Part shown: positions 14,526-54,885 of the stretch, piece after piece
Layout: every line of letters begins with the position of its first letter
Position numbering within the stretch: position 1 is the stretch's first letter
Assembly (NCBI GenBank): GCA_039819085.1
Contig: JBCBSQ010000010.1
Coordinates: 37,038 to 101,037 of the forward strand
Direction: 5' to 3'
Source of the DNA: Pseudomonadota bacterium
Lineage (GTDB): Bacteria; Pseudomonadota; Alphaproteobacteria; Caulobacterales; Parvularculaceae
Length of the DNA: 64,000 nt
The notes under the pieces: generated by a model
Databases searched by the model: none
What the model saw: the letters and a program-made list of their open reading frames with translations, nothing else
Told to the model about the DNA's origin: nothing
Made by a program: the position numbers and the translations under genes

Positions 14526-17001
<2,476 letters not shown>

Positions 17002-31051: not shown

Positions 31052-31127
<76 letters not shown>

Positions 31128-31696: not shown

Positions 31697-31806
31697 GGGA
31701 GGGTCTTTCTCGCTGGGCGCGCGGGTCAAAAGCGCGCGAAAAAGCGGTCTGTTGCCACGTGGACGCGGCGCTGTCAAAACTCGACGCCCAATTCGCGAGG
31801 GACGGC

Positions 31807-33213
31807 ATGAACGAGCCGCAAGACGCCAGCCAGCGCAACGCAGAAATCGCCGACAGCGCCGCGCCGCCGCTTCTCGGGCGATGGCGATCGCGTCGCGGCG
31901 GCGCCTTGCGCGGGGTTGCGCGCGCGCCAGGCGACAAGTCCATCTCACACCGCGCGTTGATACTTGGCGCGCTTGCTGAGGGCGAGACCGACATTGTCGG
32001 CCTCCTGCAATCGGATGATGTGTTGCGGACCGCCGCGGCGATGCGCGCGCTCGGCGCCCGCATAGAACGAGACGGGCGCGGCGAGGACGCGCGCTGGCGC
32101 GTTTCAGGCGCCGCGTGGCGCGCGCCCGGCCAGCCATTGTACTTCGGCAATTCCGGCACCGGCTGCCGCCTTGTGATGGGGGCGGTCGCTGGTCAGGGCG
32201 TGACGGCGGCGTTTGACGGGGACGCCTCCTTGCGCGCGCGGCCGATGCGCCGCATCGCCGACCCGCTGGAGCTGATGGGCGCGCGCATCGAAATGGAAGA
32301 CGGACGCCTGCCGTTGACGGTCAGCGTGAGCGACGCCGGGTTGACGGGCGTCGCATACGAACTGCCGGTCGCCTCCGCGCAAGTGAAGTCGGCCGCCCTT
32401 CTCGCAGGGCTCGGCGCGTCCGGAGAAACGGTCATTCAAGAGTCGACGCTGACCCGCGACCATACCGAACGCATGCTGACGGCCTTCGGGATTGCGCTCG
32501 ACATCGAAACCGCCGGGACAGGTCGGCGCATCCGCCTCGCTGGCGGTCAGACGCTGAGCCCCGCGTCCATCAATGTCGCGGGCGATCCCTCCTCGGCCGC
32601 ATTTCCGATCGTCGCCGCGCTCATTACGCCGGACTCGGACGTCTGCATCCGGAACGTCCTGATGAACCCGGCGCGGATCGGTCTTTATCAGACCTTGCGT
32701 GAAATGGGCGCGGACCTTGAGGTTGAAGACGAGCGAACCGTCAGCGGCGAACCGGTGGCTGACATGCGCGCGCGGCATTCGGCGTTGAAGGGCGTTGCGG
32801 TGCCGGCCTCGCGCGCGCCGTCCATGATCGATGAATACCCGATCCTCGCGGTCGCCGCCGCGTTCGCTGACGGCGACGTCTATATGCCTGGTATTGAGGA
32901 ATTGCGCGTGAAAGAGACGGACCGCATCGACGCCGTCGTCGCCATGCTGAAGGCCGCGGGCGTAGAGACCGAGGCGGGGCCGGATTTCCTCCGGGTGATG
33001 AGCGCCACATCAGGGAGCAAGGGCGGAGCGCCGAAAGGCGGCGCGCGCGTCGAGACGCGCCACGATCATCGCATCGCAATGTCGGCGCTCGTTCTGGGGC
33101 TCGGCGCGGATGAGCCTGTCGAAATCGATGACGCGTCGATGATCGCGACGAGCTTCCCGGACTTTGCAGTCCTCATGCGAAGTCTCGGCGCTGATCTTGC
33201 GCCGTCAGCTTAA
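31807..33213 (+). CDS. aroA: 3-phosphoshikimate 1-carboxyvinyltransferase
   Basis: Track ORF is 31759..33213 and ATG 31807 is preferred. Motifs: PGDKSISHRALILGALAEGET, FGNSGTGCRL, VKETDRI. Confidence 0.93.
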   Translation: MNEPQDASQRNAEIADSAAPPLLGRWRSRRGGALRGVARAPGDKSISHRALILGALAEGETDIVGLLQSDDVLRTAAAMRALGARIERDGRGEDARWRVSGAAWRAPGQPLYFGNSGTGCRLVMGAVAGQGVTAAFDGDASLRARPMRRIADPLELMGARIEMEDGRLPLTVSVSDAGLTGVAYELPVASAQVKSAALLAGLGASGETVIQESTLTRDHTERMLTAFGIALDIETAGTGRRIRLAGGQTLSPASINVAGDPSSAAFPIVAALITPDSDVCIRNVLMNPARIGLYQTLREMGADLEVEDERTVSGEPVADMRARHSALKGVAVPASRAPSMIDEYPILAVAAAFADGDVYMPGIEELRVKETDRIDAVVAMLKAAGVETEAGPDFLRVMSATSGSKGGAPKGGARVETRHDHRIAMSALVLGLGADEPVEIDDASMIATSFPDFAVLMRSLGADLAPSA

Positions 33214-34134
33214 GTGGGTTTCGAACCAGGCGAGCGTGCGCTCCCAGGAGAGCTTGGCGGCGGCCTCGTCATAACGGGGCGTTGTGTCATTGTGGAAGCC
33301 ATGATTCGTGTCAGGATAATAATAGGCTTCGAACGTGACGCCGGCCTTCCTTAAGGCCTCGCGATAGGCGGGCCAGCCGGAATTCACCCGCTCGTCATTC
33401 TCCGCATAATGAAGAAGAAGCGCCGCGCCGATCGCGCTTGCGTCTTTCGGGTCGGCCTGCCGGCCGTAATAGGGAACCGAGCAGGCCATGTCAGGGTAGG
33501 CGACTGCGAGCGCATTGCAGACGCCGCCGCCATAGCAGAACCCGACTGCGCCGATCCTGTCCGTCGTTTCTTCAAGCGATCCCAGATGTTCAAATCCGGC
33601 GAAGAAGTCGTTCATGAGCTTCTCGCCGTCCATCGACCTCTGCATGGCGCGGCCGTCATCGTCATTGCCCGGATAGCCGCCAATCGGCGAAAGGCCGTCC
33701 GGGGCGAGGGCGACGTACCCCGCCTTGGCGACGCGGCGCGCCACATCCTCTATGTACGGGTTCAGGCCGCGATTTTCGTGGACGACGAGGACGCCGCCTT
33801 GAGGAGTGGTCATGTCGGCGGGGCGCGCGAGAAGCCCCTCTATTTCGCCGTGGCCTTCGGGCGAGTCATATTTGATTCGATCAGTGACGATATCCGGATC
33901 GTCCGGCGCCACCTGCCGCGCCAAAGCGTAGTTCGGTTGCAACGCCGCCAGGACGCCCGCCGCCGCGCCCGCCCCCACGAGCGCGCCGGCCCGATCAAGG
34001 AAGTCCCGCTTGGTCAGGCGCCCATGGACGTACCCGTCATAGATCTCGAGGAGTTTCGGATCGAAGTCCGCAGCGGTTTTGCGGCGCGTCCCCTGCCGGC
34101 CGTTTGTCGCGGCGGCGGATGATCGTTCAGTCAT
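33205..34134 (-). CDS. dienelactone hydrolase family protein (Tat-type leader)
   Basis: 309 aa with SD AAAGGAG. The leader (TKRDFLDRAGALVGAGAAAGVLAA) is Tat-like. The nucleophile context is GAVGFCYGG. HENRGLN and NHGFHND are also present. Confidence 0.85.
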   Translation of the reverse strand: MTERSSAAATNGRQGTRRKTAADFDPKLLEIYDGYVHGRLTKRDFLDRAGALVGAGAAAGVLAALQPNYALARQVAPDDPDIVTDRIKYDSPEGHGEIEGLLARPADMTTPQGGVLVVHENRGLNPYIEDVARRVAKAGYVALAPDGLSPIGGYPGNDDDGRAMQRSMDGEKLMNDFFAGFEHLGSLEETTDRIGAVGFCYGGGVCNALAVAYPDMACSVPYYGRQADPKDASAIGAALLLHYAENDERVNSGWPAYREALRKAGVTFEAYYYPDTNHGFHNDTTPRYDEAAAKLSWERTLAWFETHLS

Positions 34135-34175
34135 CGGCGGCTCCTTTCTGGCGCGCGTCGTGATGTGATTGACGA

Positions 34176-35744
34176 CTACTTTCCAACCGCGTCCTTCACG
34201 AAGTCGCGCAGGTCTTTGGCGTATTTTTCAAGCGAGGCTGGGTGAACATACATCATGTGGCCGGCTTCGTAATACTCGGTTGTGATCCGCGCGCGCTCCT
34301 CTGCTGTGAGGTCCATGTGGTCCACAAAATAGTCCGTCGCGCCATAAGGAGTCGCCAGGTCGTAATACCCCTGCTGAATCAACACCTTCATTGTCGGGTT
34401 CTGTTTCATGGCGTGTTCAAAGTCGACCCCGGTGTTCGGCGCGGTCTGCGACCAGCCGGCGCCGCCGGGCGCGGCGTGCGACCAGTCCCATTTCCCGAAC
34501 ACGCCGCCGGAGATCTTGTACTTCTTGTCCGCGCCGAATTTCAGCGTACCCGTCATATAGTCGAGGAACGCCGCGGTGTAGGCCGCCCGCACTGTTGAGA
34601 AGTAGGGGTCATAGTCCATGCTCTCCGCTAGCGGACGAACATGGGCGCCGATGAAGCGCGAATCGATCCGGCCGACGGTCTTGCCGGTCTTGCGCATCAG
34701 CTCCTTCAGGAACTGCTGATGGTTCACCCGCAGGTTCGCCATCAGCCAGTATTCCTTGTCGAGGCCCGTGTAGCCGGCGAGCTGCTCGGCGATCGCGTCG
34801 CGTTCGGCGTCCGGCAGGCGGTTGCCCCGACGCAGCGCGAGGAGATACGGGCCGGCGGCGAACTCGTCGACTTCCGCAAGGAACGGGCGCAATTCCTCAG
34901 GGCGCGCATCAAGCGCTTCGTGATACCACGCGGTCGCCGCGAAGGTCGAAAGGAACAGCGTGTGGGCGAGATCCATCGCTTCGCCGTCGGCCCCTGCCGT
35001 GTAGTCCATGAAGGGCGAGACGAGGACGACGCCGGCGAGGTCCATGTTATGCCGCGTCAGGAGCCTATAGGTCGTCACGCCCGCGCGCATGCCGCCATAG
35101 CTCTCGCCCAGCATGAATTTTGGGGACAGCCAGCGGCCGTTCTCGGTCGTGAAGCGGGCCATGAATTCGGCCGCCGCGTCGCCGTCCTGGTCGACGCCCC
35201 AATAGTCCTCGCCCTTCGTCTCGCCGAGAAGCTCCGTATACCCGGTGCCGACCGGATCCATCATGACGAGGTCGGCGACGTCGAGGACGGAGTGCTCATT
35301 GTTCACGTGGGCGTAGGGCGCGGGGCCGGTGTGCGCGCCGTCGGCGAGCGCGACCCGGCGCGGTCCGAGAACGCCCATATGCAGCCACATGGAGGCTGAG
35401 CCCGGGCCGCCATTATAGGCGAAGACGATGGGCCGCTTTGCGACGTCGTCAACGTCCGTACGGCGATAATACGTGTAGCCGAAGGTCGCTTTCGCCTCGC
35501 CCTTGTCGTCCAGCATGGGCATGAGGCCGACCGTCGCTTCGTAGGGTATCGCCGCGCCGCCGATCGATACTGAACCGGTGGTGACGGATTTCTCGTGCTC
35601 GGGCGCTTCTTTCTTCTCTTCGCTTTCCTGCGCCTCGCCGTTTTCAGTCTCCGCGAAGGCGGCGGCGGGGCCGGCGGGCGCGAGGAGGGCGGCGGCGGCG
35701 ATGAGAGCGAGCGTCCCGCGGCGAGAGGTCGGACGGCGGATCAT
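34176..35744 (-). CDS. S10-family serine carboxypeptidase-like protein, secreted
   Basis: Track ORF is 34176..36044. ATG 35744 gives [31 protein letters not shown]. The nucleophile motif is LGESYGGMRA. NGGPGSAS is also present. Confidence 0.8.
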   Translation of the reverse strand: MIRRPTSRRGTLALIAAAALLAPAGPAAAFAETENGEAQESEEKKEAPEHEKSVTTGSVSIGGAAIPYEATVGLMPMLDDKGEAKATFGYTYYRRTDVDDVAKRPIVFAYNGGPGSASMWLHMGVLGPRRVALADGAHTGPAPYAHVNNEHSVLDVADLVMMDPVGTGYTELLGETKGEDYWGVDQDGDAAAEFMARFTTENGRWLSPKFMLGESYGGMRAGVTTYRLLTRHNMDLAGVVLVSPFMDYTAGADGEAMDLAHTLFLSTFAATAWYHEALDARPEELRPFLAEVDEFAAGPYLLALRRGNRLPDAERDAIAEQLAGYTGLDKEYWLMANLRVNHQQFLKELMRKTGKTVGRIDSRFIGAHVRPLAESMDYDPYFSTVRAAYTAAFLDYMTGTLKFGADKKYKISGGVFGKWDWSHAAPGGAGWSQTAPNTGVDFEHAMKQNPTMKVLIQQGYYDLATPYGATDYFVDHMDLTAEERARITTEYYEAGHMMYVHPASLEKYAKDLRDFVKDAVGK

Positions 35745-35924
35745 GTGGCGGTTTCCCTTATTCGGCGAACTCGTCCCGGCGCAGCTCGCGCAAGGCCCGT
35801 TGGCGATGCGGGCAAGCGGAGCGTCGCCGGGCCTTAGGGTCAAGCGCGACATGTAGCGGTCGCCTTTGACGCGGCGGTTTGCCGCCGCTTGGCCCATCCG
35901 TCGGGGCCTTGTATGCGTTGCGGT

Positions 35925-36608
35925 ATGCCGACTGCTCCTTCCTCCGAACCAACAAAGCCGAAAGTCATCGCCCTTGACGGCCCCGCGGCGAGCGGCAAGG
36001 GCACCCTCGCGCGGCGTCTCGCCGCGCATTACGGCTTTGCCCATCTCGACACAGGCGTTCTTTATCGCGGCGTCGCCTGGATGATGATGAATGACGGCTG
36101 GGACACAGGCGACGCAGACGCCGCGGGCCGTTATGCGCGCGCCTTCAGCCTGGATCAGATCGAGGGCGCGCCGATCCGCTCGCGCGAAGTGGGGGCGGGC
36201 GCCTCAAAGGTGGCGGCGGTGCCGGCGGTGCGCGCGGCGCTGCTTCAGTTTCAGCGCAGGTTCGCGTCGAACCCGCCGGGCGGCGCGGCTGGCGCGATCC
36301 TTGACGGACGGGACATCGGCACGGTCGTCTGCCCCGACGCCTGCGTGAAGTTCTTCATCACTGCGAGCCCCGAGGCGCGGGCGAAGCGCCGCTGGCTGGA
36401 GCTGCGCGAGGAAAAGCCGGACCTCACCGAAGCGGCGATCCTTGAGGACATCAGGGAGCGCGACGCCCGCGACGCGGCCCGCAAGGACGCGCCCATGAAG
36501 CCGTCGGAAGACGCGGAAATCATCAACACCACCGACCTAACCGAAGAGGCCGTGTCCGCGGCCGCGCAGGCGATTATCGACGACGCGTTCGCCCGGAAAT
36601 CCGACTAG
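35925..36608 (+). CDS. cmk: cytidylate kinase
   Basis: Track ORF starts at TTG 35889 and ATG 35925 is preferred. The P-loop is VIALDGPAASGKGT. DTGVLYR and ILDGRDIGTVV are also present. Confidence 0.92.
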   Translation: MPTAPSSEPTKPKVIALDGPAASGKGTLARRLAAHYGFAHLDTGVLYRGVAWMMMNDGWDTGDADAAGRYARAFSLDQIEGAPIRSREVGAGASKVAAVPAVRAALLQFQRRFASNPPGGAAGAILDGRDIGTVVCPDACVKFFITASPEARAKRRWLELREEKPDLTEAAILEDIRERDARDAARKDAPMKPSEDAEIINTTDLTEEAVSAAAQAIIDDAFARKSD

Positions 36609-36673
36609 TCATCGCCTAGCGCGCGGGCGTCCTCGGCGGTACACTCCTCAGTGGGATCAAGTCGGGGGAAGAG

Positions 36674-39600
36674 ATGGGGCGAGATCTACCGGAGATTCTG
36701 GGCGTCGCCGTGGCGGCGGCGTTCCTTGCGGCGCTTGTTTTCGGCGCGGGGGTCGAGACGCCGCAATTTTCCGCGCGGCCTGACGCGCCGAAAAATGACG
36801 GCTGGGGTGGCAAGTCGCTGATGTTCGCGCCGGCGCGGCCGGACCCCATGGGCTTTGAGCGCGGGATCGCGCCGAGCCGCGGCCAGGCCTGGACGGATGC
36901 GGCCGCAGCGTATTTCGGCGACGACGTCGACGGGCCATTGGTGCGCGCCGCGGCGGAGGGCGAAGCGGCCCCCACTGGCGACGTCGACCGCAAGCCGCGC
37001 CTCCGGATTGACACCGACATGCACGGCGCTGCGATTCTGTCGCTGGACGTCGACGCTGCGGGCCGCTTTGCGGTGACGGGTAGCTACGACAAGACGGCGC
37101 GGGTCTGGGCCATTCCACAGAAGGAAGGCGAGCCGTTCCGCCTGTTGAACGTCCTGCGGCCGCCCATCGGCGATGGAAATGAAGGCCGGATCGACGCGGT
37201 CGCCATCTCGCCGGACGGGTCCCTCATCGCCATGGGCGGCTGGACGGGTAAAACCGGTCATCCAAAACAAGTCTATCTTTTTGATCGCGTTAGCGGACGA
37301 ATGGTGGGGCGCCTTGGCGGTTTGCCGCAGGTCATTGATTCGCTGGCCTTTGCGCCGGACGGCGGCACGCTGGTCGCTGGTCTCGCCGACTCTTTCGGCG
37401 TGCGCGCCTGGCGGCGCGACGATGCGGGTGGCTGGCGCCGTTCGTCGGTCGAAGGGCAAATGGACTTTGGCGGGGATGTCTACGCGCTGGATTTCGCCGA
37501 CCGCGGCGACGGCGACTGGCGTTTGGCGGTCGGGTCCTACGACGGCGATGTGCGCCTTTATGATTCTAATTTGGAACTGATCGCGCGTGCGCCTGGAATC
37601 GAGTCCGGCGACAGGATCTACCGCGTGCGGTTTGACCCGTCCGGCGGTCGCCTCGCCGTTACCGCCACAAACCGGCCGGCGATCGCGGTGCTGTCTGGCG
37701 AAGATCTCAGTCCGCTTTACCGTCCGTCGGTGGAGCGCGTTTCTTCGTTTGACAACCTGACGAAAGTCGCCTGGTCAAATGATGGGCGGCAGTTGTTTGC
37801 CGCCGGCAACGCGTCAGCATTCTTCAACGGGTCGGACGACGATGAGCTTTACGTTCGTGTATACGAAGACGGCGGTCGCGAGGTGGTCGGTGATTTCCCT
37901 ATATCGCAGGACACTGTACAGGGGCTCTCCGCCTTCGAAGCGAACCGCGTTTTGGTCGCGTCCGCAGACCCGCAGCTTGCAATTCTTAGGCCGCCAGGTG
38001 AAGTCGTGGCGCGCGCCGGCGCGGCGAAAATCGACGTGCGCGGGACGGCCGGAAAACGAGAGAATAATGAACGCGACCTGCGCCTGTCGCCAGATGGGCT
38101 CGTTGTCAGCCTGCCATTTTATACCGAACGCGCGCCGACTTGGCGTTTCGATCTGACATTGCGATCAGTAGAGGCGTTCGATGGCGATGACGCCGCATTG
38201 GCGCCGCCGGCGTTAGTCGATGACATCACCCAGGTGGAGAATTGGCTTCCGACTGCAGCCGCCTCGGCCACGGTGAATAGCGCGGGAATCGAACTGGCGC
38301 CGTTCGAAGAGACCTACGCTCTCGCCCATGCGCCGATGGACGAGACATTTTTATTGGGGACGAATTTCAATCTACGCCGCGTCGGGCCCGATGGCGAGAC
38401 GATCTGGGTCGAGCCGGCGCATGGGGTTGCCTGGCAAGTGAACGTCACGCCGGACGGCCGCTTCGCCGTGGCGGCGTTCGGCGACGGCACGGTGCGCTGG
38501 TATGATTATGAGACGGGCGAGGAGCGCTTGGCGCTTTACGTCGTCAATGAACCGGAGGCGGAAAACCCGCGCTGGGTCGCCTGGACGCCGTCGGGATATT
38601 ACGACGCCGCTCCGGGGGCGGAGGATCTCATCGGCTGGCATGTCAATCAGGCCAAGGATAAAGAGAGCCTGTTCTACCCCGCCAGCCGTTTCCGGGAACT
38701 GTTTTACCGGCCCGATATCGTCGAAATGGCGCTTGATGATCGCGCTCCATGCATTTCCTGGGTCCCGCTAAGCTGTGACCGGCAACCGGCCTGGGCGAAA
38801 AACCGCTTCGGCGTCACGCCGCCGCAGGTGTATCCGCGGCCCAGCCTGGCGGAGCTGCAAGCGCTCTTCCCGCCGATTGTGACGGTCTACGGTCAGGAGA
38901 CGCTCCCAAATGGCGACGTCGTTGTGGAGTACGAGGTCGACAATCCGTTTGACGCGCCGGTGGAGCTCGACGTCTTTGTGGATGGTGAGAAACGATCCGC
39001 CTCAGGCGCCCGCAACGTGGCCGGATCAGGACGTCAGCGGACCACCATCGCCCGCGGCGCCTGCGCAAGCGACGGCATCATCCTCATTGCCCGGAGCAAT
39101 GGCCGCGCCTCGCCGGAAGCGCGCGCCCCGCGCGGCGCGGCGGCCATTGACGGCCAATCGTTTGCGGATCTTTGCGCCGCGGACGCCGCAGCGAAACCGT
39201 TCCTGAACGCGCTTCTTGTCGGCGTCAGCGATTACGAAAACGATGACCTTGATCTATCGTTCGCTGACAATGACGCGCGCGATTTCGGGGCAATCCTCTC
39301 TGCGCAAACGTCCCGCGCGTTCGCCGGCGGCGAAGTCCGCGTCCTCACCGCCAGCGGCGAAGAGCCCGGCGCGGCGAAAGCGACGCGTGCGAACATTCTC
39401 GCTGCGTTCGATGATTTCGTAGCCACGTCAAAATCGAAACAGCATGTTGTGAACGTCGTCTTCTTTGCCGGGCACGGCGTGCGAGAAGACCTAAAGGGGT
39501 ACTATCTCCTGCCGTCCGACGCGAAGCTCAACGATCTCTATAGTTCGGCGATCAGTGTCGATGATCTCACCAAGGCGGTGAGAAACGCGGATGGACTGAA

Positions 39601-40012
39601 GGTCGTCTTCCTCGACGCCTGCTATTCCGGGTTCGACGAAGAGGGCGACAGCCTCGATCTCTTCGATATTCAGGGCGTCTCAAACATTCTCGGCGGATCG
39701 GACGTGCGCGCGGAAGTGTTCGCCTCCTCCACCGGCGCGCAGCAGTCATTCGAGCACCCCTCCTGGAGCAACGGCGCGTTCACTGAAGCGCTCCTGGAGT
39801 TGTTCACCGGGGACGCGTCAGCGCCCTTGGACGACGAACTCGCGCTGAAACTCCAAAGCGTGCGGGTGAACCGTCGGGTTGAGAATTCGGAGCTTCACGA
39901 CTGGCTGAAAAACCGGGTGCGGCGGCTCGCGGCGGAGGAAGAGCTCGGCGCTCAGACGCCCACCTATCAGGCGCTCAATCCGGGCGACGTCATTTTCGCA
40001 GAGGTGGATTGA
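36674..40012 (+). CDS. membrane-anchored WD40 beta-propeller / caspase-like (peptidase C14) fusion protein
   Basis: 1112 aa. The N-terminal helix is ILGVAVAAAFLAALVFGAGV. WD40 blades include FAVTGSYDKTARVWAI, LAVGSYDGDVRLYD and FAVAAFGDGTVRWYD. The C-terminal caspase dyad contexts are VVFFAGHG and VVFLDACYSGF. Confidence 0.85.
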   Translation: MGRDLPEILGVAVAAAFLAALVFGAGVETPQFSARPDAPKNDGWGGKSLMFAPARPDPMGFERGIAPSRGQAWTDAAAAYFGDDVDGPLVRAAAEGEAAPTGDVDRKPRLRIDTDMHGAAILSLDVDAAGRFAVTGSYDKTARVWAIPQKEGEPFRLLNVLRPPIGDGNEGRIDAVAISPDGSLIAMGGWTGKTGHPKQVYLFDRVSGRMVGRLGGLPQVIDSLAFAPDGGTLVAGLADSFGVRAWRRDDAGGWRRSSVEGQMDFGGDVYALDFADRGDGDWRLAVGSYDGDVRLYDSNLELIARAPGIESGDRIYRVRFDPSGGRLAVTATNRPAIAVLSGEDLSPLYRPSVERVSSFDNLTKVAWSNDGRQLFAAGNASAFFNGSDDDELYVRVYEDGGREVVGDFPISQDTVQGLSAFEANRVLVASADPQLAILRPPGEVVARAGAAKIDVRGTAGKRENNERDLRLSPDGLVVSLPFYTERAPTWRFDLTLRSVEAFDGDDAALAPPALVDDITQVENWLPTAAASATVNSAGIELAPFEETYALAHAPMDETFLLGTNFNLRRVGPDGETIWVEPAHGVAWQVNVTPDGRFAVAAFGDGTVRWYDYETGEERLALYVVNEPEAENPRWVAWTPSGYYDAAPGAEDLIGWHVNQAKDKESLFYPASRFRELFYRPDIVEMALDDRAPCISWVPLSCDRQPAWAKNRFGVTPPQVYPRPSLAELQALFPPIVTVYGQETLPNGDVVVEYEVDNPFDAPVELDVFVDGEKRSASGARNVAGSGRQRTTIARGACASDGIILIARSNGRASPEARAPRGAAAIDGQSFADLCAADAAAKPFLNALLVGVSDYENDDLDLSFADNDARDFGAILSAQTSRAFAGGEVRVLTASGEEPGAAKATRANILAAFDDFVATSKSKQHVVNVVFFAGHGVREDLKGYYLLPSDAKLNDLYSSAISVDDLTKAVRNADGLKVVFLDACYSGFDEEGDSLDLFDIQGVSNILGGSDVRAEVFASSTGAQQSFEHPSWSNGAFTEALLELFTGDASAPLDDELALKLQSVRVNRRVENSELHDWLKNRVRRLAAEEELGAQTPTYQALNPGDVIFAEVD

Positions 40013-40240
40013 CGCGCGCCAGTTTCCGGCGGGCGAACTCGCCGTGATCGATTCCGGCTTGCGCGCCGCCTCTCGCCCGCCTATATGGCGGCGGCTCCCG
40101 AAAACGACGGGAACGGGCGGCGTGACTGCGCCGCCGCGGCCGATCTGACCCAACGCGCCTGCGCTGCCGGGTCAAATCCAAAATCGGCCGGCGCGCCTGA
40201 GCGATGAATTCCGGCGCTGACGCTGATCTATTTCGGCATG

Positions 40241-40268
40241 ATGACTGTCGCGAAATGACTATCGCGAA
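40241..40268. repeat. 2 x 14-bp tandem repeat in the rpsA upstream region
   Basis: atgactgtcgcgaa is followed immediately by atgactatcgcgaa. Each copy contains the palindrome tcgcga. The pair lies about 160-190 nt upstream of the rpsA start. Confidence 0.7.
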
Positions 40269-40429
40269 TTAACGTCCGCCGCGAAGGCCGCATCGCGCGG
40301 CGCGTCGCGTTTGCGCGCGTTCGTTAGCAGTCATCTTCGATAGCGGTGATCGTCGCCAGTCCATTAAACCCGAAACCTCTAGCAAGCCGTCCGCGACAGG
40401 ACGGATGAAACAACCAGGAACCGACCAAC

Positions 40430-42148
40430 TTGTCTGAAGCAACCAACCTCAACCCGAGCATCGACGATTTCGCCGAAATGCTCGAAGCCTCCCTCGTCGA
40501 CCGCCGCCAGTTTGAAGACACGGTGGTCAAAGGCGTCGTCACCGCCATCGAAAAGGACATGGCCGTCGTCGACGTCGGCCTGAAAACCGAAGGCCGCGTG
40601 CCGCTGAAGGAGTTCTCCCAGCCGGGTCAGGACGTCTCGCTGAAGGTCGGCGACACGGTCGAGGTCTATGTGGACCGCGTGGAGAACGCGCTCGGCGAAG
40701 CGGTCATCAGCCGCGACAAGGCCCGCCGCGAAGAGGCGTGGGAGCGCCTTGAGCAGCAGTATAATGACGAAGAGCGCGTCGAGGGCGTCATCTTCAACCG
40801 GGTGAAAGGCGGCTTTACGGTCGATCTTGGCGGCGCCGTGGCGTTCCTGCCGGGCTCTCAGGTGGACATCCGGCCGGTGCGTGACGCCGGACCGCTGATG
40901 AACATGCCGCAGCCATTCAAGATCCTGAAAATGGACCGCCGCCGCGGGAACATCGTCGTGTCGCGCCGATCGATCCTTGAAGAGGACCGCGCGGAACATC
41001 GCCAGGAGGTCGTCCGCGAACTGAACGAGGGGGATGAGCGCGAAGGCGTCGTCAAGAACATCACCGATTACGGCGCGTTCGTCGAGCTGGCGCCGGGCGT
41101 CGACGGGCTGTTGCACGTCACCGACATGTCGTGGAGCCGCGTCAACCACCCGTCAGAGGTTCTCGGCGTCAACGACACCGTCCGTATCAAGATCATCAAG
41201 ATCAATCCGGAGACCCACCGCATCTCGCTCGGGATGAAGCAGCTGACCCCGGATCCATGGGAAGGCGTTGCTGCGAAGTATCCGATCGACGCCAAGTTCA
41301 AGGGCAAGGTCACGAACATCACCGATTACGGCGCGTTCGTCGAGCTGGAGGACGGCATTGAAGGCCTCGTCCACGTCTCGGAGATGAGCTGGGTGAAGAA
41401 GAACGTGCACCCGGGCAAGATCGTCTCCACCTCTCAGGAAGTCGAAGTGATGATCCTTGAGGTGGACGAGAACAAGCGGCGGATTTCGCTTGGCCTCAAG
41501 CAGTGCCTCAACAATCCGTGGGAGCTGTTCGCCGAAGAGCATCCGATCGGCTCCGTCATCGAAGGCGAAGTCAAGAACATCACCGAGTTCGGCCTCTTTG
41601 TCGGCCTCACCGAGGACATGGACGGCATGGTCCATCTCTCGGACCTCGACTGGGACCGCTCCGGCGAAGACGCGATCAAGGACTACAACAAGGGCGACAT
41701 GGTGAAGGCCAAGGTGCTCGACGTTGATCCGGACAAGGAACGCATCTCGCTTGGCGTCAAGCAGGTCGGCTCTGATCCGATCGACACGGTCGAGGGCGGC
41801 GTGCGCAAGGGCGCTGACGTCACTTGCACCGTCACGGCGATTGAGTCCGGCGGCATTGAGGTGCAGGTCGGCGGCGAGGGCGGTCCGAAAGCGTTCATCC
41901 GCAAGTCGGATCTTTCCAAGGACCGCAACGAGCAGCGCCCGGATCGGTTCGCTGTCGGCGACAAGGTCGATGCGCGGGTCACCGCTTTCGACAAGACCTC
42001 GCGGCGGATCTCGCTGTCCATTAAGGCGCGCGAAGTGGCCGAGGAGAAAGAAGCCGTCGAACAGTACGGCTCAGCCGACGCCGGCGCTTCGCTTGGCGAC
42101 ATCCTCGGCGCGGCGCTGAAGGATTCCGAAGACGACGGCAAAGAATAG
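40430..42148 (+). CDS. rpsA: 30S ribosomal protein S1
   Basis: 572 aa with six S1 (OB-fold) repeats (e.g. GVVKNITDYGAFVEL, GKVTNITDYGAFVEL, GEVKNITEFGLFVGL). The start codon is TTG, and no in-frame ATG lies upstream. Confidence 0.97.
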   Translation: MSEATNLNPSIDDFAEMLEASLVDRRQFEDTVVKGVVTAIEKDMAVVDVGLKTEGRVPLKEFSQPGQDVSLKVGDTVEVYVDRVENALGEAVISRDKARREEAWERLEQQYNDEERVEGVIFNRVKGGFTVDLGGAVAFLPGSQVDIRPVRDAGPLMNMPQPFKILKMDRRRGNIVVSRRSILEEDRAEHRQEVVRELNEGDEREGVVKNITDYGAFVELAPGVDGLLHVTDMSWSRVNHPSEVLGVNDTVRIKIIKINPETHRISLGMKQLTPDPWEGVAAKYPIDAKFKGKVTNITDYGAFVELEDGIEGLVHVSEMSWVKKNVHPGKIVSTSQEVEVMILEVDENKRRISLGLKQCLNNPWELFAEEHPIGSVIEGEVKNITEFGLFVGLTEDMDGMVHLSDLDWDRSGEDAIKDYNKGDMVKAKVLDVDPDKERISLGVKQVGSDPIDTVEGGVRKGADVTCTVTAIESGGIEVQVGGEGGPKAFIRKSDLSKDRNEQRPDRFAVGDKVDARVTAFDKTSRRISLSIKAREVAEEKEAVEQYGSADAGASLGDILGAALKDSEDDGKE

Positions 42149-42174: not shown

Positions 42175-42204
42175 GCGCGCCGGCTTGCCGGCGCGCTTTT
42201 TTTT
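42175..42204 (+). terminator. Rho-independent terminator of rpsA
   Basis: gcgcgccgg-cttg-ccggcgcgc followed by T8. Confidence 0.8.
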
Positions 42205-43161: not shown

Positions 43162-45636
43162 TCAAAGGGGATCGCCCAGGCATCCCATCCTGACATCGAC
43201 GCGCCTGTTTAATGGTTCGCGAACGCCGTCAGGCGTCGGTTTTGCGGGTTGCGTCTCCCCCACAGCCTCCATGCTGATTTCCGTCAGGTCGACGCCAAGG
43301 AACTGCATATAGGCGCGGATGGCGTTCGCCCGCTTAGCTGACAAGGACAGATTGTACGCCGCCTCGCCGCTTGAATCCGCGTGGCCGATCAACTCAATGC
43401 TGGAACGTCCTGCGCGACAGCTCCAAGGAGCATCCTGATATCGCGCATTCGCTTCCCGAATTAAGTTCAACGCCTCTGGTCCTAGCACGAACTGATTGAA
43501 ATCGAAGTAGACAGAAAAGACAAACGGGTCCGGCTGAAATGGATCGGCGCTCCGACGTTGCTCTACGGCGTCCTGCGCCCCACCATTTACGACCCGCGCA
43601 TAGACCGCGCCGCCGCGCTCAAAGCCATAGGCGATCGGCATAAAGATGATCGCAACAACCAGAAAAATCACTGCGCCGATATAATCGAGGGGCCTTTGGT
43701 TGATGTCGAATGCGCGCTGAATAAGGCGGCTCACCGGCCCGAGGCGCAAGAAGCCCCGCGCAAAGGTTGAGTAGACGACGAACCCCCAGACCCAGAATGT
43801 CGTGGAGAACGTTGTGAATAAGAAACCAAAGCGGAGCCGGTCGGTGATGGTCCACTCGTTAGTCGACTTCACGAAAACGCCGGTGAAGAGATCGACCGTT
43901 TCGCGCAAGGCGGTCTGAAAAAAGCCGAGATAGGTCGACGCGTCGTTGCGGTGATAGGAAGAGGCGTCGGGGTCCGCCCCCTGCAGCGCTTGAATCGTAT
44001 CGGTGCTGAGGAAGAAGAGCTGGTAGTTGGAGGGGTACTTATAAACAAGCACCAAGAAGGCGAAGAAGAACAGGAACGAGACCGTCGTTGTCGCCAGAAC
44101 GTCGAACAAGAGGACGCCGATACTGTTTAGCCCGAGCCGGCGACCGTAACGCAGGATGTAGCGCGACTCCGTCACCGAGAACCAGTCGAAGACGGCGTTG
44201 GTCAACAGGATGGTGCCGAGAACGCCAAGGATAATCGCTCCTTCGCGCAGCCCGTAATACTCGAAGTAGAAGCGGATCACTTCGAAGATCGGCGCGATGA
44301 GGTCAGGGAACAGCAGCACAACCGCGCCGAACCAGCCGAGGCTGATAAGGATGCTGCGGATGAGGCTCGGCAAGGTGACGAGGCCAAAGCGCTTCTTGAA
44401 GCCGTAGACACGCTCAAACTGATTGAAAAATGGCTCAATGAGCGCGTTGGCGTCGTTGCGTTCCGCCGTCGATAAGAGCCAATCCGCGATGTCTCTACGG
44501 CCTTCAGGCGTCATCCGCGCCTGCAGCGCGCGCAGCAGCATGAAGCTGAACGCGCCAAGAACGAGGACCCGCGCCCACCAGGGGGTCTGATTGGCCATGA
44601 ACGCGCCAGCCGCCGACAACGCCGGACCGAAGCCTTTTACAAAGGCGTCCGCGTTGAAGCTCTCCGACGTCGCGCCGCCGCCGCTCCCCGTGCCCTCAAG
44701 GACGGCGTCCGGTGGCGGTTCAAGGCCAGTCGTCGCCTGCAAAACATCGCTTGCGGCGAGGATAGAGGTGATCCTCTTGGCGGAATTGTATTGGCCGGGG
44801 CCAAGCGTATTCGGGCCGCCGTAGTGGAGCCCCAAGACGCCGCGGCCGAGTTCGGCGAATACCGGCGCGCCCGAGCTGCCCGGCAAGGTGTCGCACGAAT
44901 GCGCGATCCGGTCGCTCGTGAACGTGAAACTGCGCGGCACGCGGCAATTCGATCGCGTGACGTGCTTCGGCCGGCCGAGCGGGTGGTGGAAGACCATGAG
45001 CGATGCGCCTGGCGTGGGGTCTTCGGCGAGAATTCGCACGGCGCCAAAGCGATCCGAAGGCCGCCCCTCAACGCGCAGAATGGCGTAGTCGAGGTCCTTG
45101 TTCGTCTCCACCGGCGACGGGTCGACGACGTAACGCACGACCGTCGTTTCGTCCGCGCCGTCATAGAAACCCATCACCAGGTTGAGGCCGGTGATCGGCC
45201 CATACTTTGGGTCGCCAGGGATGCAATGGTGGTTCGTTAAGATGAGGTCGGGCGCGATAATGGAGGCGGTGCAGGTCCGCATGCCGTTAAAGCCATGCAG
45301 AATGTCGAGCCGGCCGACAGGGGCGCTGAGGCGCCGTAAATCGGAACCAGGTCCATAGTCGGCCAGCGGCTCAAACCGCGCCCTATCTCCAAGCACCGCT
45401 TCGAGCCGCTCAAGGTCTTCGGTGCTTTGATTGAATTCGAGATTGTTCTTGCCGAACTGCTCAGCCGAAAACAGGAACTCCTGCAGCGCCGCATCAGCCC
45501 CATCAGAGGCCAGCGCTCGGGCGCACAGCGCAATCCAGAGCATTGCCGCAAACACTTGGCGGAGCGCAAAACCACGTGGCGCGATTGCGCGAACCCCGCG
45601 ACTGCGCAACGCGCGCTTTTCAATGCTTGGTGGCAT
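43162..45636 (-). CDS. trypsin-fold serine protease + polytopic membrane module + OmpA_C-like domain fusion
   Basis: Track ORF starts at TTG 45654. I prefer ATG 45636, which is preceded by GGTGAGGTGG. The signal-like N-terminus is FAAMLWIALCARALA. The triad contexts are LILTNHHC, LDYAILRV and LPGSSGAPVF. About eight hydrophobic helices follow. The OmpA_C motifs are NLSLSAKRANAIRAYM and NRRVDVRM. Confidence 0.8.
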   Translation of the reverse strand: MPPSIEKRALRSRGVRAIAPRGFALRQVFAAMLWIALCARALASDGADAALQEFLFSAEQFGKNNLEFNQSTEDLERLEAVLGDRARFEPLADYGPGSDLRRLSAPVGRLDILHGFNGMRTCTASIIAPDLILTNHHCIPGDPKYGPITGLNLVMGFYDGADETTVVRYVVDPSPVETNKDLDYAILRVEGRPSDRFGAVRILAEDPTPGASLMVFHHPLGRPKHVTRSNCRVPRSFTFTSDRIAHSCDTLPGSSGAPVFAELGRGVLGLHYGGPNTLGPGQYNSAKRITSILAASDVLQATTGLEPPPDAVLEGTGSGGGATSESFNADAFVKGFGPALSAAGAFMANQTPWWARVLVLGAFSFMLLRALQARMTPEGRRDIADWLLSTAERNDANALIEPFFNQFERVYGFKKRFGLVTLPSLIRSILISLGWFGAVVLLFPDLIAPIFEVIRFYFEYYGLREGAIILGVLGTILLTNAVFDWFSVTESRYILRYGRRLGLNSIGVLLFDVLATTTVSFLFFFAFLVLVYKYPSNYQLFFLSTDTIQALQGADPDASSYHRNDASTYLGFFQTALRETVDLFTGVFVKSTNEWTITDRLRFGFLFTTFSTTFWVWGFVVYSTFARGFLRLGPVSRLIQRAFDINQRPLDYIGAVIFLVVAIIFMPIAYGFERGGAVYARVVNGGAQDAVEQRRSADPFQPDPFVFSVYFDFNQFVLGPEALNLIREANARYQDAPWSCRAGRSSIELIGHADSSGEAAYNLSLSAKRANAIRAYMQFLGVDLTEISMEAVGETQPAKPTPDGVREPLNRRVDVRMGCLGDPL

Positions 45637-45772
45637 CCCCACCTCACCCCCCAATCAAGCCTTTTGACGTTAAGGCCAAGGCCTAGACAATGCAAAGTCG
45701 GGCGAGGTTTGGCGCGGGCCTTGGGCATCGGCTCGGCTTAGAGCCGTCGCTGAACCTTAAAAGGAGTCGAAT

Positions 45773-46663
45773 TTGCCTGAATTGCCTGAAGTGGAGACGG
45801 TCCGGCGCGGGCTGGCGCCAGCGTTCGAAGGCGCGCGCGTCACCGCCGTTCGGCTAAGGCGCGCGGATCTTCGGTTTCCCTTCCCTGACCGTTTTCAGGA
45901 GCGCCTTGAAGGCGCGCGCGTCGACGCGCTCGGACGTCGTGGAAAGTACCTGGTCGCCGCCTTGTCCTCTGGGGAGAGCCTGATCATGCACCTTGGCATG
46001 TCGGGCCGGTTCACCGTCGCCGGGCGCGGCGTCGAAGCCGAAAAAGGCGCGGGCGAACAGATGGCTCGTGCGGCGTTCCACTATGCGGCGGGCGGTGATC
46101 CGCGACACGACCACGTCGCATTCGACCTTGACGGTCCGAATGGCGGATGCGTGGTCACCTACAATGACCCAAGGCGTTTCGGCTTCATGGACCTTGTCCC
46201 AGGCGGGGATCTTGAGGTCTGTCGCCACTTTGCCGGCATGGGGCCGGAGCCCTTGTCGGCGGCGTTCTCGGACGCCTATTTCGCCGACCGATTGAGAGGC
46301 GGCGGGTCGCCGATCAAGACGGCGCTTCTCGACCAGCGCGTCGTCGCCGGCGTCGGTAATATCTACGCGTGCGAGGCGCTCTATCGCGCCGGCGTCTCCC
46401 CGCGCCGGCGCGCGGGGACGGTCCCAGGCGCGCGCTCGCGTCGTCTTCGCATGGCGATTGTCGACGTCCTTGAAGAGGCGATCGTCGCCGGCGGCTCAAG
46501 CCTGCGGGACTTTGCGGCGACGGACGGCGGCCTTGGTTACTTCCAGCACGCTTTCGCAGTCTACGACCGGGCCGGAGAGCCATGCCGCCGCTGCGGCGGC
46601 GTGATCACTCGGATAACGCAATCAGGGCGCTCCACCTTCTTTTGCGGCGGTTGCCAACGCTAA
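45773..46663 (+). CDS. mutM: formamidopyrimidine-DNA glycosylase
   Basis: A TTG start follows AAGGAG. The N-terminus (M)[13 protein letters not shown] carries the catalytic Pro2. The C-terminal zinc finger is [25 protein letters not shown]. Confidence 0.95.
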
Positions 46664-46823
46664 TGCGCCGAGGCCTGATTCCGTCGTTGACGGCCCCTTG
46701 TTCGGCCGATATACGCCGGGGCTTCCGATTGCGCGGGCGGGCCGTCCTGTTCCGCGCCATGACATCACCGTCGCAAGACAACACTGTCGCAAGACAACAC
46801 CGTTGAAGGTCTGCTCAAGGTCC

Positions 46824-47090
46824 ATGGCCAACACCACGTCCGCTAAGAAGATGGTGCGCAAAATCGCCAAGCGCACGGAAGTGAACAAAGCGCGTCGCTC
46901 GCGCGTGCGCACCTATCTGCGCCGGCTAGAGGATGCGATTAACGCCGGCGACAAGGCGGCCGCCGACGCGGCGTTTCGCGCTGCGCAACCGGAGCTTCAC
47001 CGCGCCGTCACCAAGGGCGTGGTTCACAAGCGCACCGCAGCGCGAAAGCTCTCCCGGCTGTCGGCTCGCGTAAAGGCGATCTCCGCTTAG
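46824..47090 (+). CDS. rpsT: 30S ribosomal protein S20
   Basis: Track ORF is 46698..47090. ATG 46824 gives [30 protein letters not shown], the typical S20 N-terminus. Length is 88 aa. Confidence 0.95.
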
Positions 47091-47873
47091 CGCATGCGCG
47101 TCGCGGCGGTCGCCGCCCGCTCTTTTCGCCTTCCGACGTCGCATGGCGACGGCCACTGCGATAAGGCGATGCATCGCCGCTGACGGCTTCAGCCGTATGC
47201 GGAATGATCTGCGAGTATCACCAAAAATCTGCCTAAATTGCAGGCGGCGTGTTGCGCGGCGCCGTTGTTTCGCGCACTAAATGCCCGCGCACCGCGTGCG
47301 CGCTGCTGCGTCTGCGCTTGTGGGAATCTTATTGTCGAGGGCGTCGTTTCGGTAACCGCTTGAATTTCTCGCGAAAAGGGATTTGCAAGAGAAAAATGTC
47401 AGGTCGAATCGCCATAAAGTCGAGTATTTCAGCTTGCGCGCCCGAATTTGATTAGTCATATTCTCTTCATAACTCATGCGGGGCGTACGGATTATTCTTG
47501 GGGGTCCCGCGGTTCAGGTAACAGTTCTTTTTGAAGCTCGTGGGCTCGCCGTGCGGCGGCGATTGCGGGTTTCGCGTAAATCCGGGCGCGTTAAGGGGCT
47601 ATCAACATGATCTACGCTGTCGCCATTCGGTTCATAGGGTGCGGACTGAATATTAATTTTCCGGCGGCGCGAAATACGGATTTCAATCCCCTCCGGTTTT
47701 TGTAGCTACGTACTGTTTTGGTTGGGCGGCCGGTTACTCAAAGGTCGCTTCTGACGCACGCCTTCTCGGGCGTTTGATTCTCGAATTTCGTTGTTGTCGT
47801 CGCCGGCGCCTGCCTTGGCGCTGAACTCTTCTTGCGTGCGCGCGTTCCTGCGCGCAGTTCCAAATTCTTGGGG

Positions 47874-49292
47874 ATGGACATGGTCGATCGGTTAAATGGG
47901 CAAAATAATTTGGATACAGAGCGGTTTGCGGTTTTTCGGGGGCTTTTGCGATCGCGATTCGGCGACGCGGTGTTCCGTTCCTGGATGTACGACCTTGCGA
48001 TTCAGGAGGCCTCGGGCGAGGAGGTGACCTTGACGACGGAATCGCCGGTCATTGCGGACAGGCTGAATCAGCAATACCGCCATGGCATGCTGAAGATCTG
48101 GAACGCCGGCGTGGCGCCGGTCAAGTCAATGTCGATCAAGACGCGCGCGCGCCTGAAACCCTCGTCGGAGCGCGCCATGCGAAAGGCGCAAGCCGGTGGC
48201 GCCGCCGCCGCGACGTTCTTCGATACGGGACGCGGGCCAAGAACCGAAGCGCGGGCGCAGATCGGATCCAGCATAGACCCTCTGGCGCGGCTTGAAGGGT
48301 TTGCGGTCGACGCGACGAACCGCACCGCCTATCTCGCGATCGAACGCGCGCTCAACGCGAATGGCCGCGGCGGCGTCATTTACCTCAGCGGTCCGTCCGG
48401 ATGCGGAAAAACCCACCTGATGTGCGGCCTTGCGCACGCCTGGCGGGAACGCCGCCCGGATGATCAAATCGCCTATTTCTCTTACGCCGACTTCAGGGAG
48501 GAGGTGGCGCCCGCGGCGCGCGCCAACAAGCTGCAGGCGGTGCACAAGAAGCTCTTCGCCTGCGAGGCGCTGATGATCGACGATCTCCACCTCTTGCACG
48601 GCTGCCGCCGCACCCAGGAGGAAATCCTGGTGCTGATGGATGTTTTTCGCACAGCCGGAAAGCAACTCATCATCTCCGGCGGGGTGGACACCGAAGAGCT
48701 AAAAGAGCGCGGCATTAGCGAGCGACTTGCGGACCGGCTCGCTGGCGGCTTGCCGGTGGTGATCGAGCCGGCGGGAGATGATCTGCGTATCGAAATTCTC
48801 GCCAGACACCGCGCTGCGTCCGACGCGCAGTGCATTCTTGGAGACGATATTCTTGAGTTTGTCGCGCGCCAGTTCAGGCGCAGCATTAGGGAGGCGATCG
48901 GAGCTATGAACCAGCTTTTGTTGGAATACGGACAAGAAGCGCGGCAGGTGAGTTTCGATGAGGCGCGCGCGTCATTGCGTCCTCGCCTGAAGACAGGCGT
49001 TGAAGCGGTGACGCTGGAGGACCTGCTGGCGGAGTCGGCGACGGCGTTCGGCCTAAGCCATGAGGAGATGGTCGGTCGATCACAGCCGCAGCGGATTGTG
49101 CGCGGACGGCACGCCTTCAATATGATCGGCCGCGATTCGCTGACGGAATCCTTCCCCCGCCTCGCCGCCGTTCTGCGCCGCGACCACACGACGATCATGT
49201 CGTCCTACGACCGCGCGCACGCGCTGCATGATCGCGACGCAGTCTTTCGGGAGAAAGTCGCGGCGATCAGAGAGGCTCTCGGCCTCTCCTGA
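47874..49292 (+). CDS. dnaA: chromosomal replication initiator DnaA
   Basis: Track ORF starts at TTG 47832 and ATG 47874 (MDMVDRL) is preferred. The AAA+ Walker A is GPSGCGKTHL. Other motifs are LMIDDLH and the domain IV segment RRDHTTIMSSYDR. Confidence 0.95.
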   Translation: MDMVDRLNGQNNLDTERFAVFRGLLRSRFGDAVFRSWMYDLAIQEASGEEVTLTTESPVIADRLNQQYRHGMLKIWNAGVAPVKSMSIKTRARLKPSSERAMRKAQAGGAAAATFFDTGRGPRTEARAQIGSSIDPLARLEGFAVDATNRTAYLAIERALNANGRGGVIYLSGPSGCGKTHLMCGLAHAWRERRPDDQIAYFSYADFREEVAPAARANKLQAVHKKLFACEALMIDDLHLLHGCRRTQEEILVLMDVFRTAGKQLIISGGVDTEELKERGISERLADRLAGGLPVVIEPAGDDLRIEILARHRAASDAQCILGDDILEFVARQFRRSIREAIGAMNQLLLEYGQEARQVSFDEARASLRPRLKTGVEAVTLEDLLAESATAFGLSHEEMVGRSQPQRIVRGRHAFNMIGRDSLTESFPRLAAVLRRDHTTIMSSYDRAHALHDRDAVFREKVAAIREALGLS

Positions 49293-49722: not shown

Positions 49723-49798
49723 GGGCGACACATGAGGCGAAGGGCGACACATGAGGCGAAGGGCGACAGGTGAAGCAAAGGGCGACAAGTGAGGCGAC
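49723..49798. repeat. 4 x 19-bp tandem repeat upstream of dnaN
   Basis: gggcgacacatgaggcgaa occurs twice exactly (49723-49741 and 49742-49760). Two diverged copies follow: gggcgacaggtgaagcaaa and gggcgacaagtgaggcgac. Further GGGCGA units lie at 49698-49722. The array ends 43 nt before the dnaN ATG. Confidence 0.9.
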
Positions 49799-49841
49799 CA
49801 GGGAAACGGTCACAGTAGCGGCCGGGGAAGATCGAGAATAA

Positions 49842-52364: not shown

Positions 52365-52371
52365 GAGTTGA

Positions 52372-54885
<2,514 letters not shown>

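Follow-up and report, generated by a model that had tools for sequence, protein, structure and literature searches.

A WD40/Peptidase_C14 protein encoded between cmk and rpsA in a Parvularculaceae bacterium: a predicted envelope protease in an insertion-tolerant spacer

What is a caspase-type protease doing between cmk and rpsA, on which side of the membrane does it act, and does its position among translation genes carry a meaning? These questions are raised by an uninterrupted open reading frame (ORF) at 36674..40012 (+) in a 64,000-nt stretch of DNA from a Parvularculaceae alphaproteobacterium (GenBank assembly GCA_039819085.1, contig JBCBSQ010000010.1, positions 37,038 to 101,037 of the forward strand), the whole of which is called the window below. 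The initial annotation described the product as a giant membrane-anchored WD40/caspase protein and suggested that a sensor-protease, potentially of the suicide or defence type, had been inserted at an unusual location in an essential gene cluster and was probably co-transcribed with it. Our overall answer, to which we assign a probability of about 60%, is that the protein is an inner-membrane-tethered cysteine endopeptidase of family C14 (clan CD) that faces the periplasm. It resembles an ordinary accessory protease of the envelope more than a suicide or defence device.

The ORF starts with an ATG, immediately 5' of which lies the purine-rich sequence GGGGGAAGAG, and it encodes 1112 amino acids (aa) plus a stop. 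As the initial annotation had it, the gene lies on the same strand as cmk and rpsA, from which it is separated by 65 nt and 417 nt, respectively. The motifs quoted there were likewise all found: the hydrophobic segment ILGVAVAAAFLAALVFGAGV (aa 8-27), the WD40 blades, VVFFAGHG (H934), and VVFLDACYSGF (C983). With its 1112 aa, the protein may be called large but not "giant". An identical protein in NCBI (P0001) is labelled "MAG: caspase family protein [Pseudomonadota bacterium]".

The domain organisation was examined with Pfam and with AlphaFold2. Both WD40 (67.1 bits, cut-off 27) and Peptidase_C14 (PF00656; 61.0 bits over aa 846-1100, cut-off 21.4) exceeded their gathering thresholds, and the proposed combination of WD40 blades with a C-terminal caspase fold was borne out by Pfam as well as by AlphaFold2 and Foldseek. 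The full-length model, for which a 50-sequence family alignment served as the input, had a mean predicted local distance difference test score (pLDDT) of 77.2 and a predicted template modelling score (pTM) of 0.73. After WD40 matches had swamped the Foldseek search with this model, aa 725-1112 were modelled separately (pLDDT 77.7). The protein begins with a hydrophobic helix at aa 8-27 (36695..36754 (+); hydropathy 2.82; modelled helix at aa 8-23), which is predicted to be a signal anchor or an uncleaved signal sequence. It is followed by a disordered tether rich in Pro, Ala, and Gly at aa 28-107 (36755..36994 (+)), most of which has a pLDDT below 50; homologs fail to align upstream of aa ~100. 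The WD40-type β-propeller region then occupies aa 109-660 (36998..38653 (+)), where Pfam WD40/propeller families matched and the pLDDT was mostly above 85. About 46 β-strands were modelled over aa 109-669, and the full model matched mainly tandem two-propeller proteins in the PDB (2ymu, Aip1 1nr0/1pgu, PWP2, and Apaf-1). Judging from the model, this region probably consists of about 11-12 blades arranged in two tandem propellers.

The end of the propeller region carries a family-signature junction motif, RWVAWTPSGYYDA..GWH.N...FYPASRFR..FYRPD (aa 633-685; 38570..38728 (+)), to which no Pfam model corresponds. Its columns W634, W637, G641, Y643, W655, N658, F673, and P680 were invariant or near-invariant in the 50-sequence alignment. 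A linker at aa 670-730 was modelled as partly helical, and an Ig/Fn3-like β-sandwich follows at aa 733-810 (38870..39103 (+); modelled strands at aa 735-808). A Pfam search gave nothing for aa 733-810; profile matches to Fn3-like modules (3pe9, E = 0.1; 3pdd, E = 0.05) and Ig-like Foldseek matches were weak. The Peptidase_C14 domain, with the caspase/hemoglobinase fold in which p20 and a contiguous p10-like part are joined, occupies aa 843-1100 (39200..39973 (+)). Taken together, the architecture is almost certainly WD40/β-sandwich/Peptidase_C14.

This architecture is widespread. Among the candidates scored, 759 matches were obtained, and the nearest full-length relatives, which number in the hundreds, share 32-40% identity over 87-92% of the query with the domain order preserved. 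An exhaustive search of 1.84 billion representative proteins with the middle module (aa 620-845), which has no Pfam model, gave matches in at least 2868 clusters (clustered at 50% identity) with E <= 1e-3, including 1097 with E <= 1e-10; the junction motif was the top-matching stretch in most of the matches listed among these 2868 representative clusters. The family is very large and functionally unexplored.

Subsequently, we asked whether the C-terminal domain has the residues of an active protease. With the separate model, Foldseek returned GSU0716 (3BIJ; 1.1e-8, TMt 0.62) and MALT1 (1.2e-8), then AtMC9, AtMC4, and caspases 7, 9, and 3, the caspase-fold matches ranging in E from 1e-8 to 1e-5. 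The family profile matched GSU0716 (1.1e-5), Yca1 (4e-4), and TbMCA2 (5e-4) in the PDB, as well as AtMC4 and MALT1; a single-sequence phmmer search of the caspase domain against the PDB gave zero matches, and the family profile alone reached 3BIJ and the metacaspases. The catalytic His934 (codon 39473..39475 (+), motif FAGHG) was invariant in both the 50-sequence and the C-terminal alignments. The catalytic Cys983 (codon 39620..39622 (+), motif LDACYSG) was at least 90% conserved in the former and invariant in the latter, and G933, G935, and D981 were, like H934, invariant in both. In the profile alignment, H934 and C983 fall on the catalytic His and Cys of TbMCA2, Yca1, and GSU0716; TbMCA2 was aligned as FDC[A]HSG, its crystal construct carrying C213A, and the position of its catalytic Cys matches Cys983. 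The caspase-type His/Cys dyad proposed in the initial annotation is therefore real at the level of conservation and alignment, and by profile, dyad, and fold alike the protein is a member of C14. As a separate observation, the subfamily to which the window protein belongs has C-Y-S-G, C-F-S-N, or C-Y-S-D from the catalytic Cys onward (39620-39631, aa 983-986), where C-H-S/A-G is typical of the family.

The same alignment bears on specificity. The Asp of the family "kDA" motif (D867 in the window protein), the GHG motif, and the D-x-C motif sit on N-D, G-H-G, and D-C-[C] of TbMCA2. Asp867 (codon 39272..39274 (+), motif ADNDA) and Asp981 of D-x-C (codon 39614..39616 (+)) are both invariant and are the predicted S1 acids equivalent to TbMCA2 Asp95 and Asp211, respectively. 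The proposed S1 pocket of TbMCA2 is formed by Cys92, Asp95, Ser156, and Asp211, and metacaspases accept Arg or Lys at P1 (PMC4357240). Because D867 and D981 align with this acidic pocket, cleavage after Arg or Lys is predicted, and we consider it somewhat likely that the enzyme has this specificity. With these two acids, the protein would fall into the metacaspase/orthocaspase-like subgroup.

The cellular location of the protein was judged from hydropathy, from the signals as read by eye, and from homology. The typical homolog begins with a basic n-region, a hydrophobic core of 10-15 residues, and an Ala-rich end, and the conserved start of the propeller, "EPP.EP.LRIE.G.HT", follows within about 13 residues. 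A strict N-terminal hydropathy threshold was passed by 96 of the 120 homologs; the propeller-start motif was detectable in 81 of these 96 and began a median of 13 residues after the hydrophobic segment. Most of the remaining homologs either are visibly truncated, as a few gene calls are, or narrowly miss it, and several of the latter have evident signal peptides. A subgroup of 1350-1400 aa has lipobox-like "..SC" signals. In the nearest subfamily (P0121, P0125, P0126, P0128, and P0130), a basic n-region and a hydrophobic helix of about 18-20 residues are followed by a linker of 70-90 aa and then by the propeller, and the window protein has the same design of helix, long linker, and propeller. 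In P0131, a more distant member, a PDZ_2 domain (41.8 bits) lies between the signal sequence and the propeller. From these signals, the WD40/β-sandwich/C14 family looks exported. Since its members start with Sec-type or lipobox-like signals right before the same propeller, the body of the window protein is also expected to be extracytoplasmic; it is likely, as far as the sequences can tell, that the helix is an N-in signal anchor and that propellers and protease are periplasmic.

Export of such proteins has been anticipated. In a 2012 survey of prokaryotic caspase homologs, WD40 was the domain most often fused (10.9% of sequences), transmembrane helices at the N-terminus, possibly signal peptides, were frequent, and an extracellular localisation was regarded as likely for some homologs (PMC3501461). 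Our literature search on exported WD40-caspase proteins found nothing beyond this survey. The clan CD enzymes gingipain and clostripain can function extracellularly (PMC4357240).

Several points weigh against a periplasmic, Arg/Lys-specific enzyme. With its 20 residues, the hydrophobic stretch of the window protein looks more like an anchor than like a signal that is cleaved off, and the charges flanking it are ambiguous, with one K/R on the N-terminal side versus two on the C-terminal side. Canonical WD40 repeats are unusual among exported bacterial proteins, and a catalytic thiol in the periplasm must remain reduced. The S1 residues were assigned through a weak profile alignment (E ~5e-4 to TbMCA2), and the literature search found no experimental study of any family member.

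On the preferred reading, the helix at aa 8-27 would insert into the inner membrane as an N-in signal anchor and leave the propellers and the protease outside the cytoplasm, where the flexible tether of about 80 residues would hold the periplasmic body to the membrane. The propellers may serve as a protein-binding platform that selects substrates or presents them to the protease, which would cut them after Arg or Lys. Envelope or extracellular proteins would be the targets, although the substrate class is a guess. Expression may depend on read-through from the cmk promoter, and the adjacency to rpsA would be an accident of an insertion-tolerant spacer, with no functional tie to translation.

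Genomic neighbours were compared in eight contexts of family members, and no partner gene was common to all of them. Tandem paralogs with an FGE-sulfatase gene close by were found in Nitrospira, and an extracytoplasmic function (ECF) sigma gene together with a C14-FGE-sulfatase gene in Rhodoferax. In a third context, the homolog P0024 lies amid a patch rich in toxin-antitoxin genes; in a fourth, a Ser/Thr kinase gene is directly upstream and DUF4384 downstream; and in a fifth, a C14-FGE-sulfatase gene and a thioredoxin-like gene are present. The sixth (L087; 20-8731 and 8767-13116) contains three tandem paralogs of the window subfamily, of which the first is cut by the contig end and the others are P0121 and P0126; they adjoin genes for an AprE/HlyD-type adaptor, an ATP-binding cassette (ABC) transporter, and an outer-membrane efflux protein (OEP), an arrangement resembling type I secretion. 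In the seventh (L088; 1-4889 and 10001-17453), P0130 is directly upstream of a housekeeping run of rlpA-like, dacC, tmk, holB, and tatD, and genes for a giant cadherin/RTX protein and an OEP are found at a distance of 5-10 kb. P0130 is thus another family member at the edge of a core gene cluster. The eighth context has a major facilitator superfamily (MFS) transporter gene and a PIN-domain gene.

FGE-sulfatase-domain genes near family members recurred in three of the eight contexts (L081, 1031-1948; L082, 12711-14150; L086, 817-2535). They stand alone or are fused to a second Peptidase_C14 domain, and their FGE domains are mutually homologous. In the window, no counterpart of any recurring neighbour was found, FGE-sulfatase included, and with three contexts of eight it was rejected as a defining partner. 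Neighbours of about 1500 aa in L082 and L086 were rejected as a shared partner, being mutually non-homologous, and the type I secretion system (T1SS)/OEP genes, present in two contexts of eight, were rejected as system-defining.

These neighbours are relevant to a variant of the preferred model in which the enzyme would be released, by cleavage of the tether or by passage through the outer membrane, as an extracellular Arg/Lys-specific protease that serves nutrient acquisition, interbacterial antagonism, or adhesin processing in a gingipain- or LapG/LapA-like manner. The export evidence is the same for both, and the three tandem paralogs beside type I secretion-like genes in L087, the location of P0130 less than 10 kb from an OEP gene and the cadherin/RTX gene, and the tandem expansion of paralogs in Nitrospira and L087, which is typical of extracellular enzymes, all point in this direction; gingipain R moreover offers the precedent of a secreted clan CD enzyme specific for Arg (PMC4357240). 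Against this, the window has neither a T1SS nor an RTX adhesin, the protein shows no secretion-signal feature and carries a long hydrophobic anchor instead of a cleavable signal, and T1SS or adhesin neighbours, which are common genes, accompany the family in only two of the eight contexts. We regard release as unlikely, though worth keeping in mind.

The other rival keeps the idea of the initial annotation: the body would be cytoplasmic, the propellers would sense a phage or stress ligand, and the caspase would cleave cellular targets, leading to abortive infection or programmed cell death. Caspase-like proteases fused to repeats, WD40 among them, take part in bacterial defence, for example those associated with gasdermins; the PADLOC "caspase" model matched the window protein (1.5e-9), NCBIfam caspase_w_EACC1 (NF047832) scored 68.9 bits, the homolog P0024 lies among toxin-antitoxin genes, and the positive-inside count is compatible with a C-in topology. 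However, the PADLOC match is limited to the generic catalytic core, and the NCBIfam score is far under the cut-off of 140, so that membership of NF047832 was rejected. Neither the protein nor its adjacent genes contain an NTPase, gasdermin, TIR, EACC1, or other effector. A STAND NTPase domain (signal transduction ATPase with numerous domains; NACHT, NB-ARC, or AAA) gave no Pfam match in the protein, and the AlphaFold2 model shows the propeller, linker, β-sandwich, and caspase parts alone. Furthermore, the window is core chromosome (purA, thiC, sbcCD, aroA, cmk, rpsA, fpg, and dnaA-dnaN-recF-gyrB), and no defence island, gasdermin gene, or mobile-element gene was found within its 64 kb. Together with the Sec-type or lipobox-like signals of the family and the lack of a partner conserved across the eight contexts, these findings make a cytoplasmic suicide or defence protease improbable, and this part of the initial annotation was not upheld. 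At the level of the locus, the apparent oddity is removed: the gene is probably no death or defence switch embedded in the translation machinery.

A reading in which the family constitutes a surveillance or processing system of the periplasm or cell surface was also considered. The propellers would bind one particular protein of the envelope or of foreign origin, for instance an adhesin, a misfolded outer-membrane protein, or a component of a phage or predator, and the caspase would cut it after Arg or Lys. We judge this quite improbable. If true, it would provide the first physiological role for a caspase homolog outside the bacterial cytoplasm, and in this genome the gene would moreover be coupled, via cmk-rpsA, to transcription under growth-rate control.

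Finally, it is highly improbable that the protein is a non-catalytic scaffold, a pseudo-protease with propellers that bring an envelope complex together: pseudo-orthocaspases exist and the window subfamily has replaced the usual C-H-S-G, but pseudo-variants typically swap His/Cys for Tyr/Ser (PMC6426788), whereas His934, Cys983, Gly933, Gly935, Asp867, and Asp981 are all kept and conserved here.

The predicted periplasmic protease was compared with known systems. With the orthocaspases and prokaryotic metacaspases that carry WD40 repeats (C14B-like), it shares the fold, a His/Cys dyad embedded in GHG and D-x-C motifs, the acidic S1 residues, and p20 and a p10-like part in a single chain; WD40 is the commonest fusion in that group, for which transmembrane helices or signal peptides at the N-terminus were noted before. 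However, in the described cyanobacterial orthocaspases the caspase domain is N-terminal, WD40 is C-terminal, and NACHT often intervenes, whereas the window protein has a signal or anchor, propellers, β-sandwich, and caspase in this order, lacks an NTPase, and has a body for which an extracytoplasmic location is predicted. GSU0716 of Geobacter sulfurreducens (3BIJ), a caspase-like protein from structural genomics, was the best match both by profile and by structure, and its GHG and DSCHSG motifs align; it differs in being a stand-alone domain of 285 residues with no assigned function and without propeller, β-sandwich, or anchor. TbMCA2, Yca1, AtMC4, AtMC9, and MALT1 have the same fold, dyad, and S1 acids and are monomeric single-chain enzymes that prefer a basic P1 residue, but they are eukaryotic and cytosolic, have other accessory domains, and are marginally similar (E 4e-4 to 5e-3).

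Gingipains pair their catalytic domain with an Ig-like domain and are secreted via the type IX secretion system. Gingipain R/K (C25) and clostripain (C11) are alike to the window protein in mode, as clan CD enzymes that are extracellular or transit the periplasm and have Arg/Lys specificity (PMC4357240), which for the window protein is a prediction. They belong to other MEROPS families, and no C25 or C11 match was among the significant profile or Foldseek matches. The defence and gasdermin-activating proteases (C14 or CHAT with WD40, TPR, LRR, or NACHT) similarly fuse a caspase-type domain to repeats, but they are cytoplasmic and have an adjacent gasdermin or effector gene, whereas the window gene has cmk and rpsA as its neighbours, no effector, and family members with export signals; a gasdermin gene within about three genes of the protease, the spacing taken as the criterion, was not found in the window.

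The NCBI caspase label and the WD40-metacaspase fusions with a possible extracellular location, catalogued in 2012, were already known. What is noteworthy for the family is its reversed order of domains and the export signals seen throughout it, and the locus is not exceptional. Bacterial caspase-type proteases are usually treated as cytoplasmic effectors of death or immunity, and thousands of WD40/β-sandwich/C14 clusters appear to be exported; the predicted periplasmic location, Arg/Lys specificity, and dependence on Cys983 offer a way into this blind spot.

We next turn to the position of the gene. The window rpsA (40430..42148 (+); six S1 domains, 347 bits) was scanned against 185,579 species-representative genomes, which yielded 80 loci, the best of them from Parvularculaceae-type alphaproteobacteria with 92%, 90%, and 84-87% identity in S1. 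In 67 loci, cmk precedes rpsA on the same strand, and the gap between the two genes has a median of 231 nt; in all of the roughly ten closest relatives it is 200-330 nt, versus 3821 nt in the window. When the window genes were compared with the 80 loci by tblastn, a WD40-caspase gene was found in none of them within 10 kb on either side. A scan of the genome collection with octapeptides of the window protein returned zero relatives. Since none of the 80 loci encodes the protein and the gap of the relatives is so much shorter, the gene is a single-gene, lineage-specific insertion in the cmk-rpsA spacer; on this point the initial annotation was right.

The location itself is not unusual, contrary to what had been supposed. 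The cmk-rpsA gap exceeds 500 nt in 13 of the 67 alphaproteobacterial loci, and the ten gaps examined (L012, L045, L069, L077-L079, L055, L044, L074, and L067) contain unrelated ORFs of 1-4 kb, which by reading of the sequences appear to encode a TetR-like regulator, nitroreductase-like and BLUF-like proteins, short-chain dehydrogenases, and an aldo-keto reductase. In the window genome, the aroA-cmk spacer has been invaded too and holds two further genes; in L002, 4.7 kb separate aroA from cmk. The cmk-rpsA spacer is therefore a recurrent, insertion-tolerant landing site.

How the gene arrived was examined by its borders and composition. Flanking direct or inverted repeats amounted to just short, chance-level matches, and no mobility gene (integrase or transposase) was found within the 64-kb window. 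The GC content at third codon positions was 0.737 (neighbours, 0.769 ± 0.036) and the codon score was -1.048 (neighbours, -1.004 ± 0.075), both within one standard deviation. With chance-level repeats, no mobility genes, and native-like composition, a classification as cargo of a mobile element or genomic island was not supported. The native-like composition suggests either that the acquisition is old or that the donor had a similar composition. In BLASTN and MAFFT comparisons of the intergenic DNA with the closest relatives, aimed at the borders of the insertion and at a retained rpsA promoter, the coding ends alone aligned, the spacers being too diverged.

With respect to transcription, the 65-nt spacer between cmk and the ORF (36609..36673) is no more stably folded than shuffled controls are (z = +0.54) and contains no terminator-like site, in agreement with the gap without a hairpin that had been noted earlier. 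Because of this, read-through from cmk is plausible. cmk needs a promoter of its own, since it diverges from the Peptidase_S10-like gene upstream. The 417-nt spacer before rpsA (40013..40429) has GC-rich hairpins and lacks a T-tract; its first 126 nt after the ORF stop gave z = -1.77, with 11 of 200 shuffles folding equally well. The sole strong terminator-like site is a hairpin at 42175-42196, after rpsA. A scan for the sigma-70 consensus returned 0 sites versus 0.9 expected, the consensus being uninformative for an alphaproteobacterium, no promoter of the gene was identified, and an Rfam scan found nothing near the locus.

The upstream flank, cmk (cytidylate kinase), is at 35889..36608 (+) (Cytidylate_kin, 176 bits), and its real start probably lies 3' of the TTG listed for it. 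aroA lies at 31759-33213 and is separated from cmk by the two genes mentioned above, both on the minus strand; the adjacency of aroA and cmk that had been assumed is thus broken in the window. These genes (33205-36044 (-)) probably encode secreted hydrolases, one a dienelactone hydrolase-like (DLH) protein with an N-terminal YqhI-like segment and the other a Peptidase_S10-like protein with a signal-like N-terminus. As they are missing from all 80 loci, they count as the second insertion in this conserved cluster.

Beyond cmk and rpsA, the neighbouring genes are these DLH-like and S10-like genes on one side and, on the other, one gene for a small membrane protein and one for a Trypsin_2-OmpA protein. 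The latter, two genes downstream of rpsA (43162-45654 (-), 830 aa), has an unusual architecture for an envelope protease, with Trypsin_2 at the N-terminus, a long hydrophobic multi-helix middle, and an OmpA-family peptidoglycan-binding domain at the C-terminus. fpg, dnaA, dnaN, recF, and gyrB stand in a row at 45773-54882, 6-15 kb downstream of rpsA, which places the cmk-rpsA locus in the dnaA region, a frequent site of the chromosomal replication origin. Elsewhere in the window, a thiamine pyrophosphate (TPP) riboswitch (13816-13952, 57.2 bits) lies upstream of thiC (14538-16463), and a tRNA gene (31055-31127 (-)) just upstream of aroA overlaps the 5' end of a mechanically called sbcD-like ORF.

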